Positions 16,564 to 30,476 of a stretch of 36,067 nt of DNA are shown here, in pieces. The position numbers and the translations under genes were made by a program. The stretch lies in the IMG/VR virus record IMGVR_UViG_2563366915_000004; one strand, 5' to 3'. The first letter of the stretch is position 1. Every line of letters starts with the position of its first letter. The notes under the pieces are model-generated. The model was not told where the DNA came from. It did no database searches and saw only the letters and a program-made list of their open reading frames with translations. Origin of the DNA: a virus (lineage: Duplodnaviria; Heunggongvirae; Uroviricota; Caudoviricetes).

Positions 16564-16769
16564 TTCATTTTCACTTTTTTAAATCCAACGACAGACGGCT
16601 GGCATTTAAGTATTGTGAAATATTATCAAATGTAATCATCATTGATTTACAAAAGATACATTTTGCCCCGAAAGGATTCATGTCAGAAACATCAAAAGAT
16701 GATGTTCTATACTGGGAACCATGACAACACGGGCATCTAAAGTGAATATGGTTTGTAATATTGTCTACC

Positions 16770-16982
16770 TCAAAGCGCCACTACATGAACAGCGGCAGGA
16801 CCTTTAGGTCCGTTCTCAATACCAAATTCAACTTCCTGATTCTCAGTTAATGTTTTGAAATCGTTGCTCTGAATTGCTGAGAAATGGACAAACACATCTT
16901 TGCTGCCATCTTTCGGCGTGATGAAACCAAAACCTTTTTCAGGGTTAAACCATTTCACTAAACCAGTCATTTTGTTAGACAT
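16770..16982 (-). CDS. cspI: cold shock protein (CspI-like)
   Basis: 70-aa [73 protein letters not shown] with RNP1/RNP2 CSD motifs (KGFGFI, VFVHF). Confidence 0.9.
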
Positions 16983-17345
16983 AATTATTACCTTTTGAAG
17001 AAATTAGCCCTTGGGCAGAATGGTCCGAAAAAAAATATCAGAGAGAAAAACCAACAAGGAAATCTCAAGAGGTACAAATAATAAAATTATAACAATGACT
17101 GCTTCAGATAAATTTGTAACAAACCAGAACACCATTAACGCATGATTAACCACCCATAGCAAGGATTACTTTTGTAAAGAAAAACACAGCAATGAAAGAA
17201 TAGCTTTATTTATTAATAATAACGTGTCATTCTGATTAAGACCTTTTATCTTACCCTTAAGATTTCAGGAATTTTGGCTCATGGAAGAGTCCTTTTTATT
17301 TAAATTTTACATTCCGCGATGTAAATGTTCCGATTTAATATTACC

Positions 17346-19376: not shown

Positions 19377-19654
19377 ATTGTGGTGCTTTTTGTGGGAGTC
19401 ATCCACTTACGCACTTTGTTTTGCCATGCCAGCAGTTAGCTTCTGCTGTAAAACTATTCATGCAGCAAACCTGCACTTCACCACAATGGTTAGCATACTT
19501 TTCCTGATTAAGATTTTGCCAAATATGCTAGCCATTGTTTCATGTATTGGACCTCCTTACTTTTTATTAAAGAGATCCAATATTCACTACTCTGTCCGTA
19601 TCTCTACTCAGGCATCAGCCTTCTTCGTTATCGTATACAGACGAGCGATGAATT

Positions 19655-19870
19655 TTAATCAGTAATGATGACATTTGCTGCTGCAGGACCTTTAGCACCA
19701 CTCTCTATAGAGAAGGTAACCTTTTGACCTTCAAATAAGGTTCGATAATTATCATTCTGAATCGCAGAAAAATGCACAAACACATCTTTACTACCATCAA
19801 CAGGAGAAATAAAGCCGAAACCTTTATCAGCGTTAAACCATTTTACTAAACCAGTCATTTTATTTGACAT
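19655..19870 (-). CDS. cspB: cold shock protein (CspB-like)
   Basis: 71-aa [70 protein letters not shown]..., with CSD RNP motifs. Confidence 0.9.
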
Positions 19871-20170
19871 TCTACATTCCTTAACTTGAGCCTTTCGGCA
19901 TAAATGGTTTGCATAACAGAAACGACTTCGTACTTAATTGGAGAGACTCAAAGAAGGAATAAGTGAATAACACCTGAAATGAGAACTGCTTTAGTAAACT
20001 ACTTCGTATATCGTCTGTTCTTCAAACCGACGCAATCATTAACGCATAGTTGAACATATGAAGCAATGTTTATTTTAGACATCCAGCCATCTTCAACCCC
20101 ATCAAAAAACTATAGCTTTCTTCAGGAACGTGTGTATAGTGCGCCAAGTTATCAGTATTAAGGAATTTTT

Positions 20171-22966: not shown

Positions 22967-23218
22967 TTATTCTTCTGCAAAAGCAGAAAAGCCAGCTTTT
23001 ATTCCGATCTCTTTCAATGCCTGTAATGAAGTGACAAACTCACCTTCGCGCAAGATAAATCCGTCCGTGACCCGAGCATCCACAAAATTAATTAACGCAG
23101 CCCCATTCTTTCGCAAACACATAATGCGGTAATGACTAACAAGATTTCCATTTTCAACGCACACAGCATAGAGGCCATCTTCACAAAAAATTTTACGCAG
23201 TTCTTCGATGTTCATCAT
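22967..23218 (-). CDS. rem: Rem-like small protein
   Basis: 83-aa ORF MMNIEELRKIFCEDGLYAVCVENGNLVSHYRIMCLRKNGAALINFVDARVTDGFILREGEFVTSLQALKEIGIKAGFSAFAEE; position next to hok as in Qin. Confidence 0.7.
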   Translation of the reverse strand: MMNIEELRKIFCEDGLYAVCVENGNLVSHYRIMCLRKNGAALINFVDARVTDGFILREGEFVTSLQALKEIGIKAGFSAFAEE

Positions 23219-23434: not shown

Positions 23435-23590
23435 TTACTCCTCAGGTTCGTAAGCTGTGAAGACAGCGACCTCCGTCTGGCCGGTTCGGATTCGTACCTC
23501 GCAGAGGTCTTTCCTCGTTACCAGTGCCGTCACTATGACGGTTAAACAGATGACGATCAGGGCGATTAACATCGCCTTTTGCTGCTTCAT
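23435..23590 (-). CDS. hokD: Hok/Gef-family type I toxin
   Basis: 51-aa ORF MKQQKAMLIALIVICLTVIVTALVTRKDLCEVRIRTGQTEVAVFTAYEPEE: single transmembrane helix plus conserved Cys and periplasmic tail; AAGGAG RBS inside the overlapping mok frame. Confidence 0.9.
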   Translation of the reverse strand: MKQQKAMLIALIVICLTVIVTALVTRKDLCEVRIRTGQTEVAVFTAYEPEE

Positions 23591-23647
23591 AGCCTGCTTC
23601 TCCTTGCCTTTCGGCTCGTAAGAGGCTAACCTACATGTGTCTAGCAT
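23435..23647 (-). CDS. mok (modulation of killing) reading frame overlapping hok
   Basis: ORF MLDTCRLASYEPKGKEKQA... begins upstream and runs in the hok frame region, as in hok/sok loci where mok translation is needed for hok translation. Confidence 0.5.
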   Translation of the reverse strand: MLDTCRLASYEPKGKEKQAMKQQKAMLIALIVICLTVIVTALVTRKDLCEVRIRTGQTEVAVFTAYEPEE

Positions 23648-23720
23648 GAAATTGGCCTCAGATTAATGTTAAGCGTCTTGCAGGACGCGTAATGTTAACT
23701 GGGGCTTTTCTCTATCTGCC
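23640..23720 (+). ncRNA. candidate Sok-type antisense RNA region (boundaries not determined)
   Basis: Inferred from hok/mok architecture: an antisense RNA complementary to the mok translation initiation region is expected here; possible -35/-10 TTGCCT-17-TAACCT near 23603-23631 on plus. No direct evidence of the transcript. Confidence 0.3.
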
Positions 23721-24264
23721 TTTGGTGTTCATGCCCGAGGCAGATAGCCTCAAGCACCCGCAGCCATTCTACTTAACTACCGTTACCTCGCCAATATGAA
23801 ATCAGTCAGAAAGGCGATCCATAAGAACAATAGCAAGACAATAAATCGCCATTACAGCCGTAATAGCCAGCGCACATTTGAGAACCAGCACCACAACCTC
23901 CTGTATTGGACGTAGACCAGTCCTGATGAATATGAGGCTGTCTCGTCAGTGATTCAATACAACTATTGGGTATAGTTTCTCTGATTTTTTCTGTGGAAAT
24001 GGGGCACAACCACTAGTCACCACCAGCACTTCTTTTAATACGCAAAGTCCGACACAAGCTAACCTTCTAGTCCGCTTTGAGCGAAAAACAGCCATAATTT
24101 AGTGCCACGTATATAATGATAGAGCTATTCAAGCTAGCAATTCACATGTAAAAATTCAGAGGGTAGAAGCACATAGTTATAAATGTTGGCTCCATCGACA
24201 AATTGCGGTCTCAAGTACATTTATTAATGTTGCCCCCGCATTAACAAATCATCAAGGTGACGAC

Positions 24265-27678: not shown

Positions 27679-28180
27679 AATTCCATCCAGCTTTTTGTTG
27701 GTATTGCTGTCGATACGCAAGTTTGAAAGCAATTGCTTTTTCTATAAGTTCGTCAGTTTCACGATCCACTACGGCAGGATCAGCAAAAAGCAGTCCGGAC
27801 TCCACCACATCGCCATATTCTTTGTTTAACCCGGCGATCATGTACGTGATGCTTTTTCCGTCACTAATTTCACGATACAACCTGAAATCATTAATCCGGA
27901 TAGCCTCCATAATTGCAGGCACTAGCGCCGTGAACTTTTCACGCTTATCCCTGGTGTCGATAGCCTTCCAGCGTTCGAATATCTTCACTCGATTAACGCC
28001 AAGCGCTCGCTGATCAACCGCGCCACCTTCATCTGTGACACGCTGAACATCGATGTTCGGGCGCTCTTTCAAAGCCCAGAATGCTTCAGTGATTAATATC
28101 GTCGCCTGCTCCTGTGTCATTCCTGGTCGACATATCCAGGCATCCAGAGCCTCACGAGCCTGTTCAGGAGTGATTTTCAT
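27659..28180 (-). CDS. YdaT-like protein (cII-position regulatory protein)
   Basis: 173-aa ORF between the cro-like gene and the initiator; segment KREKFTALVPAIMEAI resembles the YdaT family as recalled; overlaps neighbours by a few codons. Confidence 0.5.
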   Translation of the reverse strand: MKITPEQAREALDAWICRPGMTQEQATILITEAFWALKERPNIDVQRVTDEGGAVDQRALGVNRVKIFERWKAIDTRDKREKFTALVPAIMEAIRINDFRLYREISDGKSITYMIAGLNKEYGDVVESGLLFADPAVVDRETDELIEKAIAFKLAYRQQYQQKAGWNYEPSFC

Positions 28181-28391
28181 TGTTCAACCGCCCCGCCCGC
28201 TTCGTCTTACGATATTCGTCATAAACCTTGGGATCATACAGAAGCTCGCCGCCAGATGCCTCCTGTAGACGCATCGCGCGACCTTCAGGAACCAGCTCTT
28301 GCCATTGAGAAACAGCAGATGGGTCAACGCCAGCAGCTTTCGCTACTTTGGCTTTCGTACCGTAAAAATTAATTACGTCTGATTTAAACAT
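28164..28391 (-). CDS. dicC: Cro-like repressor DicC homolog
   Basis: Track ORF 28164..28418; start at internal Met MFKSDVINFYGTKAKVAKAAGVDPSAVSQWQ...PEGRAMRLQEASGGELLYDPKVYDEYRKTKRAGRLNNENHS (HTH); GGAGGTG RBS; divergent from dicA. Confidence 0.8.
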   Translation of the reverse strand: MFKSDVINFYGTKAKVAKAAGVDPSAVSQWQELVPEGRAMRLQEASGGELLYDPKVYDEYRKTKRAGRLNNENHS

Positions 28392-28404
28392 CGCACCTCC
28401 AGTA

Positions 28405-28418
28405 TTGAGTTTTCTCAA
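28405..28418. promoter_or_regulatory. palindromic operator TTGAGTTTTCTCAA in the dicA/dicC divergent promoter region
   Basis: Perfect 14-bp palindrome between the divergent repressor genes; a near-identical copy lies upstream of ydfA. Confidence 0.5.
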
Positions 28419-28468
28419 TGCTAATCACTCAAGGAATCTCAAGTCAAGGGTTATTAAGATATCTAAAT

Positions 28469-28876
28469 ATGAACGAGAAAACTTTAGGTCAACGCATTAG
28501 AGAAAGACGTAAGCAGGTAGGTTTAAGTCAAAACGGTTTAAGCAAAGCTGCTGGCGTATCTGGCTCATCAATTTCATTATGGGAAAGTGACCATACAGCC
28601 CCGCGCGGGCAAAATTTGCATCGCCTCGCCGAGGTATTGCAATGTTCACCAACCTGGATACTGTTTGGCGACGAGGACAAAACACCAGCTCCCCCTGTTT
28701 CACTCGATAGTGCCTTAGACTTATCGGAAGATGAGTTAGAGATGCTGCGTTTGTATCGCGCACTTCCTAAATCAGAGCAACAAGCACAACTCAGCGAACT
28801 CCGCGCCCGCGTTGAGAATTTTAATCGCCTGTTCACCGAGCTATTAGAGGCTCGCAAACGCAACAAGCATCAATAA
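28469..28876 (+). CDS. dicA: cI-like repressor DicA homolog (XRE-family HTH)
   Basis: Track ORF 28418..28876; start at internal Met MNEKTLGQRIRERRKQVGLSQNGLSKAAGVSGSSISLWESDHTAPRGQNLHRLAEVLQCSPTWILFGDED...; no obvious SD, possibly a short-leader transcript. Confidence 0.85.
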   Translation: MNEKTLGQRIRERRKQVGLSQNGLSKAAGVSGSSISLWESDHTAPRGQNLHRLAEVLQCSPTWILFGDEDKTPAPPVSLDSALDLSEDELEMLRLYRALPKSEQQAQLSELRARVENFNRLFTELLEARKRNKHQ

Positions 28877-28940
28877 TCATCCCTTCACAAAATTTTAAAG
28901 CCTTACATTTCAATGTATTGGCTTTATCTTGCGCCAATAC

Positions 28941-28992
28941 TTGAGTTTTCTCATCAAAAAGCCTTGACGAAAAATAATGAGAAAACTAAATT
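28941..28992 (+). promoter_or_regulatory. candidate dicB-operon promoter with second operator copy
   Basis: TTGAGTTTTCTCA (28941-28953) followed by TTGACG - 17 bp - TAAATT (about 28964-28992) upstream of ydfA. Confidence 0.45.
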
Positions 28993-29068
28993 ACCTCCAT
29001 CAACACACCGCACGGTGTTCTCAGCAAACAGTTCCGCTACCCCGGCGTTAAGGGGAAATGAGGTCAGC

Positions 29069-29224
29069 ATGGATACTATCGATCTTGGCAACAACGAATC
29101 TCTGGTGTACGGCGTGTTTCCAAACCAGGACGGCACGTTCACCGCAATGACGTATACCAAAAGCAAAACGTTTAAAACCGAAAATGGTGCCCGTCGCTGG
29201 CTGGAAAGAAACTCAGGTGAGTGA
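29069..29224 (+). CDS. ydfA: YdfA-like small protein (DUF1391)
   Basis: Track ORF 28913..29224; start at internal ATG with GAGG RBS: MDTIDLGNNESLVYGVFPNQDGTFTAMTYTKSKTFKTENGARRWLERNSGE (51 aa). Confidence 0.8.
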   Translation: MDTIDLGNNESLVYGVFPNQDGTFTAMTYTKSKTFKTENGARRWLERNSGE

Positions 29225-30060: not shown

Positions 30061-30113
30061 TTTCTGGTGACGTTTGGCGGTATCAGTTTTACTCCGTGAC
30101 TGCTCTGCCGCCG
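30061..30113 (+). ncRNA. dicF: DicF small RNA (Hfq-dependent sRNA from the dicB operon)
   Basis: Sequence TTTCTGGTGACGTTTGGCGGTATCAGTTTTACTCCGTGACTGCTCTGCCGCC followed by GTTTTT matches the 53-nt DicF sequence as remembered; lies between the ydfB/C region and dicB. Confidence 0.75.
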
Positions 30114-30287: not shown

Positions 30288-30476
30288 ATGAAAACGTTAT
30301 TACCAAACGTTAATACGTCTGAAGGTTGTTTTGAAATTGGTGTCACTATCAGTAACCCTGTATTTACTGAAGATGCCATTAACAAGAGAAAACAAGAACG
30401 GGAGCTATTAAATAAAATATGCATTGTTTCAATGCTGGCTCGTTTACGTCTGATGCCAAAAGGATGTGCACAATGA
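30288..30476 (+). CDS. dicB: cell division inhibitor DicB
   Basis: Track ORF 30183..30476; start at internal ATG with GAGGA RBS: MKTLLPNVNTSEGCFEIGVTISNPVFTEDAINKRKQERELLNKICIVSMLARLRLMPKGCAQ (62 aa). Confidence 0.85.
   Translation: MKTLLPNVNTSEGCFEIGVTISNPVFTEDAINKRKQERELLNKICIVSMLARLRLMPKGCAQ

Follow-up and report, generated by a model that had tools for sequence, protein, structure and literature searches.

The DicA/DicC immunity region of Qin, a cryptic prophage in E. coli K-12, was described by Bejar et al. (1986), as cited in PMC10448788. In this region DicA binds the operator Oc, as demonstrated genetically, and single base changes are enough to abolish the binding (Yun et al. 2012; PMC3441716). 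Oc overlaps the -10 of the dicC promoter, whose start was determined by 5'RACE; from Oc, DicA acts as a repressor of dicC and an activator of dicA (PMC3441716). Two further elements, Om and Oa, showed no DicA binding in the in vivo assay of the same study, where these data are not shown (PMC3441716). Operators are present at both dicCp and dicBp, DicA represses dicBp, Rem is the antirepressor of DicA, and bistability between DicA and DicC has been described (Ragunathan and Vanderpool 2023; PMC10448788). The partner protein, K-12 DicC, gives a ChIP-seq peak at the dicA/dicC promoter, with a palindrome of the form TTNG...CNAA, and represses dicA 48-84-fold (PMC11430063). In lambdoid phages, both proteins use common operators with different orders of preference (PMC10448788). 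The operators of phage P22 consist of TTAAG half-sites placed 4 bp apart (TTAAG-ATAT-CTTAA; consensus ATTTAAGATATCTTAAAT, PDB 2R1J), and V33 of the P22 repressor packs against half-site bases (PMC5175364).

The DNA analysed here, referred to as the window, is the complete 36,067-nt stretch of IMG/VR record IMGVR_UViG_2563366915_000004, and its sequence marks it as an E. coli prophage of the lambdoid, Qin-like kind. In the region under study it shares ~99.5% identity with mEp460_ev081, a temperate phage described as functional and as having dicA, dicC, dicB, dicF and rem (PMC10448788), and many complete E. coli chromosomes contain an identical copy of the region. For example, in strain 118UI it is annotated as encoding a YdaT-family protein, a Cro/CI protein, an HTH protein, ydfA, dicB, ydfD, an exonuclease, xis and int. 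The dicC-like gene (28164..28391, minus strand) encodes a Cro-type protein with 70% identity to K-12 DicC and a Pfam P22_Cro match spanning 28167-28391, and is followed by a YdaT-like gene. A gap of 77 bp separates it from the divergent dicA-like repressor gene (28469..28876, plus strand), which encodes a protein of 135 aa with 57% identity to K-12 DicA. It is in this gap that the first copy of the repeat discussed below lies, as the initial annotation had it. The dicB operon follows on the plus strand, with ydfA (DUF1391; 29069..29224) as its first gene, the DicF small RNA (30062..30113; Rfam RF00039, 72.5 bits) and the cell-division inhibitor gene dicB (30288..30476). A homologue of the gene for the Qin DicA antirepressor, rem (PMC10448788), is found at 22967..23218 on the minus strand; its product is 98% identical to K-12 Rem, although the two repressors share only 57%.

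The only Pfam family assigned to the dicA-like protein was HTH_3 (28469-28873); the Pfam search returned HTH families only, with no match to the Peptidase_S24 (autocleavage) domain. Among solved structures, it is closest to the N-terminal domain of P22 C2 (phmmer against PDB; 1ADR, E = 8e-16, and 2R1J, 4e-15, residues 1-72), and in tblastn against P22-type repressors the coverage was likewise residues 1-72 only. Compared with K-12 DicA, the C-terminal half is conserved and the divergence is concentrated in the helix-turn-helix.

The initial annotation had reported a perfect 14-bp palindrome between dicC and dicA, with a 13-bp copy ahead of ydfA. The duplication is borne out: within the 36-kb window, TTGAGTTTTCTCA is found as an exact 13-mer at two places, 28405-28417 and 28941-28953. 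The palindrome is not perfect, as TTGAGTTTTCTCAA reverse-complements to TTGAGAAAACTCAA; the central TTTT is asymmetric and the symmetry is restricted to the arms, which are 5 bp long, or 6 bp when taken as ATTGAG/CTCAAT. The picture of two sites, both of which are present, was also incomplete, since two further related sites had been overlooked. One of these, AATGAGAAAACTAAAT at 28976-28991, is a third, inverted copy that differs from the 13-mer at one position and lies over the -10 of the dicB-operon promoter. The other, ATTAAGATATCTAAAT at 28453-28468, is a weaker relative placed directly against the dicA ATG. A full-text literature search for the 13-mer of the window returned no paper.

We refer to the four sites as A1, A2, B1 and B2. 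Site A1, the equivalent of Oc (28404..28419), reads ATTGAG-TTTT-CTCAAT, in which the inverted arms measure 6 bp. It is centred 20.5 nt from the dicC ATG and at -57.5 relative to the dicA ATG, overlapping both the predicted start point of the dicC promoter and the end of its -10. Site A2, the equivalent of Oa (28453..28468), reads ATTAAG-ATAT-CTAAAT and is centred at -8.5 from the dicA ATG, where it likely overlaps the -10 and start of a leaderless dicA mRNA. In A2 an A or a T replaces the G of each half-site, at the same position in both halves. Site B1 (28940..28955), CTTGAG-TTTT-CTCATC, is located just 5' of the -35 of the dicB-operon promoter, and B2 (28976..28991), AATGAG-AAAA-CTAAAT, is inverted with respect to B1 and overlaps the -10 TAAATT. 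The B1-B2 pair, 36 bp apart from centre to centre, thus brackets the -35 TTGACG. There are two clear sites at each of the two promoters. A degenerate, Om-like middle element, CTCAAG-GAAT-CTCAAG, is present in the spacer of the dicC promoter (28428..28443); it has one good half-site only, matches 7/12 positions, which is below threshold, and is partly conserved. At dicBp, no third site was found at 9/12 or more half-site positions. A candidate fifth site within the dicA coding sequence (28472-28487, AACGAGAAAACTTTAG) was rejected as poorly symmetric and unconserved in Buttiauxella, where the corresponding sequence is ATGAATGAAATGACG.

The sigma70-like promoter that the initial annotation had proposed ahead of ydfA, TTGACG-17-TAAATT, is indeed found at that place and was also picked by a consensus scan. 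This dicB-operon promoter (dicBp, PL-like) occupies 28964..28992 on the plus strand, with TTGACG at 28964-28969, a 17-nt spacer and TAAATT at 28987-28992; the second copy of the 13-mer ends 10 nt 5' of TTGACG. The operon is predicted to start near A28999, in a conserved CATCAA that is invariant across the immunity types compared below. The folded start of its leader has an overall stability no higher than that of shuffled sequence (z = 0.19). The predicted dicC (PR-like) promoter is on the minus strand at 28418..28447, with TTGACT at 28447-28442, an 18-nt spacer and TAGCAT at 28423-28418; it runs into A1, and its -35 (GTCAAG on the plus strand) is invariant in 4 species. Behind dicA there is a hairpin (28896..28926, plus strand; -11.3 kcal/mol, z = -3.1) followed by UUUAUCUU, a weak terminator-like element with a loop, TTTCAATGT, that is conserved in Buttiauxella. 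This conserved block had been considered as a third operator 5' of B1, and was discarded as such on being recognised as the hairpin loop.

The dicA start had also been described as having no Shine-Dalgarno sequence, suggesting a short-leader transcript comparable to that of lambda cI, whose mRNA from PRM is leaderless. No GGAG-like Shine-Dalgarno is present within 20 nt of the dicA ATG; dicC, by contrast, has GGAGGT 5 nt before its ATG. The short-leader interpretation gains support from the homologous gene of K-12, since differential RNA-seq mapped only five leaderless mRNAs in E. coli, that of dicA among them (PMC4681348), and dicA is counted among the known leaderless genes (PMC8794815). The dicA mRNA of the window is thus probably leaderless as well, by analogy; as the promoter scan gave no recognisable -35 for dicA, its start is placed by homology to K-12 only.

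The layout of this region is that already described for K-12, and only the sequence and specificity of the sites differ. The two loci have the same gene order (the ydaT/ydfX-side operon, dicC, divergent dicA, ydfA, dicF, dicB), a 135-aa repressor without a cleavage domain, a P22_Cro-type partner and a dicA without Shine-Dalgarno. In both, the sites lie over the -10 and start of dicC, against the dicA ATG, and as a pair around the -35 of dicBp, with spacings of 49-50 bp and 35-36 bp, respectively. The K-12 Oc (TTGTTAGTCATAACTAACAA) is located just 5' of dicC, and the K-12 dicC promoter, TTGACT-17-TATCTT, is in the same place as that of the window. In contrast, the recognition helix is GSSISLWES in the window and HVSVSQWER in K-12, and the sites are ATTGAG-N4-CTCAAT in the window and TGTTAG-N6-CTAACA in K-12. 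Given these different sites, the two prophages are predicted to be heteroimmune. The window prophage is also the more complete of the two, with replication genes, an exonuclease, xis and int.

The sites themselves resemble those of P22, in that two 5-bp half-sites surround a 4-bp A/T centre (TTGAG-TTTT-CTCAA and TTAAG-ATAT-CTAAA), and the N-terminal DNA-binding domains are homologous, aligning from residue 1. A2 has TTAAGATATCT in common with the P22 consensus, whereas the half-site typical of the window, TTGAG, differs from TTAAG by its central base. The residues of the window repressor that align with N32-V33 and Q37 of P22 are G-S and L, a change in the helix that would be at least compatible with the change in the half-site. 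Unlike P22 C2, which is 216 aa long (PMC10448788), the 135-aa repressor is devoid of a C-terminal LexA/S24-type domain, and there are two clear sites per promoter, as opposed to three in P22. Since no autocleavage domain is present, induction cannot proceed by RecA-stimulated cleavage.

With lambda the locus shares divergent repressor and cro genes, operators over both promoters, a second cluster at the leftward early promoter, a repressor start without Shine-Dalgarno, and an operator over the start of the repressor gene itself, like OR3. Its operators, however, have no sequence relationship to those of lambda, and its repressor is not SOS-cleavable. Lambda has three adjacent operators at each of its two early promoters, to be compared with the two clear sites per promoter and the degenerate middle element described above. 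Moreover, the centre of A1 lies near -57 from the dicA start, compared with a position near -42 for OR2, so that activation of dicA by its own product would require either another contact or this middle element. By description, the locus is similar to the Gifsy GfoR/GfhR systems of Salmonella, where short non-cleavable repressors are relieved by small antirepressors (PMC10448788), and a rem homologue is present in the window.

To compare immunity types, heteroimmune diversity was drawn from genome contigs (8 loci) and from tblastn against phage records. Sites were located in eight loci with five recognition-helix types, a small set in which the types are phylogenetically non-independent: the window and two Buttiauxella loci, C. 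braakii (L007), K-12 (L002) and Citrobacter sp. NCU1 (L010), a PPompW-type prophage (L091) and phage BUCT709 (L092). K-12, NCU1, the PPompW-type prophage and BUCT709 have sites at the same four positions as the window, with a different sequence. The geometry varied little over the eight loci: the Oc-Oa spacing is 49-51 bp, the OB1-OB2 spacing is 34-37 bp, the centre of Oa is at -8.5 to -9.5 and the centre of Oc at -57.5 to -59.5 relative to the dicA ATG. An Oa-like site adjoins the dicA ATG in all types. The helix SSISLWES goes with the half-site TTGAG, HVSVSQWER with TGTTAG, and HVTISQWER/T with CTTAG or TGTTAG; on comparison of these sequences, the sites co-vary with the recognition helix of the repressor over the five immunity types. 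An arrangement with the A and B clusters in helical phase or looped together was considered and rejected, as the A1-B1 distance is not conserved (536 bp, vs 510 bp in K-12).

Conservation within the immunity type of the window follows the same sites. In the Buttiauxella loci, where the repressor is 74-76% identical and has the same SSISLWES helix, all four sites are kept and the adjacent bases have diverged; the core of A1 is unchanged there. An IMG/VR scan, from which the best 80 of 422 tblastn-confirmed loci were taken, gave repressors 96-100% identical and mostly near-identical loci, and this set is therefore useful for a SNP footprint and not for heteroimmune diversity. Among 68 near-identical loci, 2 of the 56 core positions were variable, compared with 30 of 213 other non-coding positions (one-sided Fisher p = 0.019), and the SNPs cluster immediately outside the 14-bp cores. 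The cores of both A1 and A2 were free of SNPs in these 68 loci. In a viral-contig group of 96% identity, the DNA between B1, the -35 and B2 has been rewritten and the sites have been retained. The A2 block is invariant in 4 species. The window shares it unchanged with L005, L006 and L007 (the C. braakii locus), and all of these have SAVSQW as the recognition helix of DicC. At the C. braakii locus, the DicA helix and the other three sites differ from those of the window, and A2 and the DicC helix are the same.

Where the sites lie with respect to promoter-like hexamers and start codons, how well they are conserved and how they co-vary with repressor type lead us to conclude, with a probability of roughly 0.85, that the repeats together form the operators of a DicA/DicC prophage immunity region of the Qin type, in a heteroimmune variant. 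The initial annotation had proposed that the dicA/dicC switch and the dicB-operon promoter are under the joint control of one repressor, and this would hold in this case. The proposal is supported by the gene order and site positions in common with K-12 and by the co-variation of sites and helix, and also by the published K-12 Qin model, in which DicA at Oc represses dicC and DicA represses dicBp (PMC3441716, PMC10448788). The site that represses the dicB promoter directly is most likely B2, over the -10, which had escaped the initial annotation.

A working model for binding, repression, autoregulation, leaderless translation and DicC preference can be derived from K-12 Qin, P22 and lambda. 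Sites of 14-16 bp, with two TTGAG-like half-sites 4 bp apart, would be recognised by the 135-aa repressor as a dimer. Occupancy of A1 would block the dicC promoter, and thus the lytic-side operon (dicC, the ydaT-like gene and the replication genes), and B1 and B2 would jointly shut off ydfA-dicF-dicB, with B2 covering the -10. A2, being weaker, is expected to provide negative autoregulation of dicA at high repressor levels. Shut-off of dicA by the Cro-like DicC would be expected to act mainly through A2, and these two roles together would amount to OR3-like behaviour. As the repressor has no LexA-type cleavage domain, induction would be expected to occur via the Rem antirepressor, encoded ~5 kb away, and via stochastic DicA/DicC flipping.

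Could the repeat be no operator at all? The 13-mer might have arisen in AT-rich intergenic DNA by chance or by a recombination-derived duplication and bind nothing, the apparent conservation reflecting promoter elements and recent ancestry. The statistics of the window by themselves are moderate. A 13-mer shared between two intergenic regions equals the maximum of 2000 shuffles (mean 7.3), and three or more approximate matches with up to 2 mismatches were reached in 8 of 100 window shuffles. Over the whole window, the half-site model was not enriched at 10/12 or more (3 sites, 2.2 expected from shuffles) and uninformative at 9/12 (14 found, 19 expected). It is also true that most of the best 80 viral loci are near-identical. 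The decisive evidence is positional and comparative: all four sites fall within two regulatory regions at fixed positions with respect to the promoters, they persist in Buttiauxella and in the 96% group where the neighbouring bases have diverged, and in heteroimmune relatives the same four positions are taken by inverted repeats of another sequence. In addition, the K-12 equivalent was validated experimentally with single-base changes (PMC3441716). An origin by chance is therefore extremely improbable, and the sites are in all likelihood functional. We regard as nearly as improbable a different start for the dicA-like gene, in which a leadered mRNA would be translated from the in-frame ATG at 28418 as a 152-aa ORF and A2 would be coding sequence. 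The reading frame from 28418 is uninterrupted, and an in-frame upstream ATG is also found at the B. gaviniae locus. However, the ATG at 28418 likewise has no Shine-Dalgarno and is located inside A1, it is replaced by ATA in B. ferragutiae, and in K-12 an in-frame TAG stands three codons before the dicA ATG. The 135-aa form is the one annotated in RefSeq, such forms can be aligned over their whole length with K-12 DicA, and with P22 C2 from residue 1, and the K-12 mRNA is leaderless at the homologous ATG (PMC4681348). Leaderless translation from the ATG at 28469 fits these observations, given the missing Shine-Dalgarno, the unconserved upstream ATG and the K-12 precedent.

A more serious alternative, possible although still the less probable one, is that the sites are mainly targets of the Cro-like DicC, or that they are split, with A2 bound by DicC only and A1, B1 and B2 either shared or bound by DicA only. 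The case is best for A2. Its invariance at the C. braakii locus, which has the same DicC helix but differs in the DicA helix and in the other three sites, supports A2 as the preferred DicC site and makes it better suited as a DicC site or promoter element than as a DicA operator. The finding that K-12 DicA bound Oc, and neither Om nor Oa (PMC3441716), points the same way, in that A2 may be no repressor site, as does the ChIP-seq peak of K-12 DicC at the dicA/dicC promoter together with its strong repression of dicA (PMC11430063). For the other sites the balance is different: K-12 DicA demonstrably binds Oc, the equivalent of A1 (PMC3441716), and at the C. braakii locus A1, B1 and B2 have changed along with the DicA helix while DicC has not. 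Moreover, lambdoid repressor/Cro pairs use the same operators and differ in the order of preference (PMC10448788). Given this evidence, a role for DicC refines the operator-set model at A2 and does not replace it. A bolder version, in which A2 (ATTAAGATATCTAAAT) would be a DicC target and leaderless-promoter element common to heteroimmune prophages of the window and C. braakii types, and not a repressor operator, seems to us rather doubtful.

If A2 were nevertheless such a shared target, the DicC of one prophage could silence the repressor gene of a heteroimmune co-resident prophage, and induction would be coupled between prophages that are formally immune-independent. The operator-set reading leaves the understanding of how such switches work unchanged. 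It does provide a testable operator definition for an immunity type that is predicted to control the toxic dicF/dicB cell-division inhibitors. The series of DicA-family repressors and operators (TTGAG, GTTAG and CTTAG, with changes at the positions of P22 N32, V33 and Q37) could also serve specificity studies or supply orthogonal repressor parts. The immunity type is found in mEp460_ev081 and is common in E. coli genomes, with at least 80% of the 1.2-kb region present in 777 of 5426 complete genomes.

Site A2, the predicted operator site that abuts the dicA ATG (window 28453-28468), has an identical sequence at four loci, the others being two Buttiauxella loci (L005, 1485-1500; L006, 586-601) and one from C. 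braakii (L007, 1485-1500). In C. braakii, the DicA recognition helix and the sites at the other three positions differ despite the shared A2, but the recognition helix of DicC, the Cro-like partner, is near-identical to that of the loci sharing A2. A2 thus follows DicC rather than DicA across these loci, which suggests that cross-talk between heteroimmune prophages is possible.

Halfway between A2 and A1, the other predicted site between dicC and dicA, at a distance of 24-25 bp, the spacer of the predicted dicC promoter carries a direct repeat, CTCAAG-GAAT-CTCAAG (28428-28443). It occupies the same position as the Om operator of the K-12 Qin prophage, has just one good half-site and is partially conserved in Buttiauxella.

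Shortly 3' of the dicA stop codon, on the plus strand, a hairpin (28896-28926) of -11.3 kcal/mol (z = -3.1) precedes UUUAUCUU and forms a weak terminator-like element between dicA and the dicB-operon promoter; its loop, TTTCAATGT, is kept in Buttiauxella. The first part of the dicB-operon leader (CATCAACACACCGCACGGTGTTCTCAGCAAACAGTTCCGCTACCCC..., 28998-29068, plus strand) is nearly identical in K-12, though the operators upstream differ. This segment contains a small hairpin, ACACCG-CA-CGGTGT, its overall fold being no more stable than that of shuffled sequence, and it could act as a signal for processing or antitermination.

One or other of the predicted sites bracketing the -35 of the dicB-operon promoter, B1 (28940-28955) or B2 (28976-28991), carries single base changes in a few otherwise near-identical prophage copies, all viral contigs (L015, L085, L086, L088 and L090), with variants such as ATTGAGCTTTCTCATT, TTTTATCATC, CATGATAAAACT and AAAACCAAATC. 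In two copies (L024 and L060) the -35 itself is damaged (CTGACA). Such changes may mean that, in cryptic copies, control of the dicB operon has decayed or been tuned. Among genome contigs, L003 and L004 encode a repressor 100% identical to that of the window, with the same flanks; the metagenome-assembled genomes to which they are assigned go by the names "Bacillota bacterium" and "Veillonella parvula". L008, a copy of the K-12 type, is filed under "Collinsella sp.". Mis-binning of E. coli prophage contigs is the most likely explanation for all three.

The homologue of the antirepressor Rem (22967-23218, minus strand) is 98% identical to K-12 Rem, whereas the repressors of the two prophages share only 57% identity and diverge mostly in the HTH. 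Rem may target the C-terminal half, which is conserved among DicA-family repressors, and may in this way act across immunity types.

RNA elements matched in Rfam, all on the minus strand, are two cspA-type 5' UTR thermoregulators (16743-17128 and 19639-20031), a sign that the prophage carries two cold-shock-protein paralogues, and a sok antitoxin RNA adjoining hokD (23585-23759).
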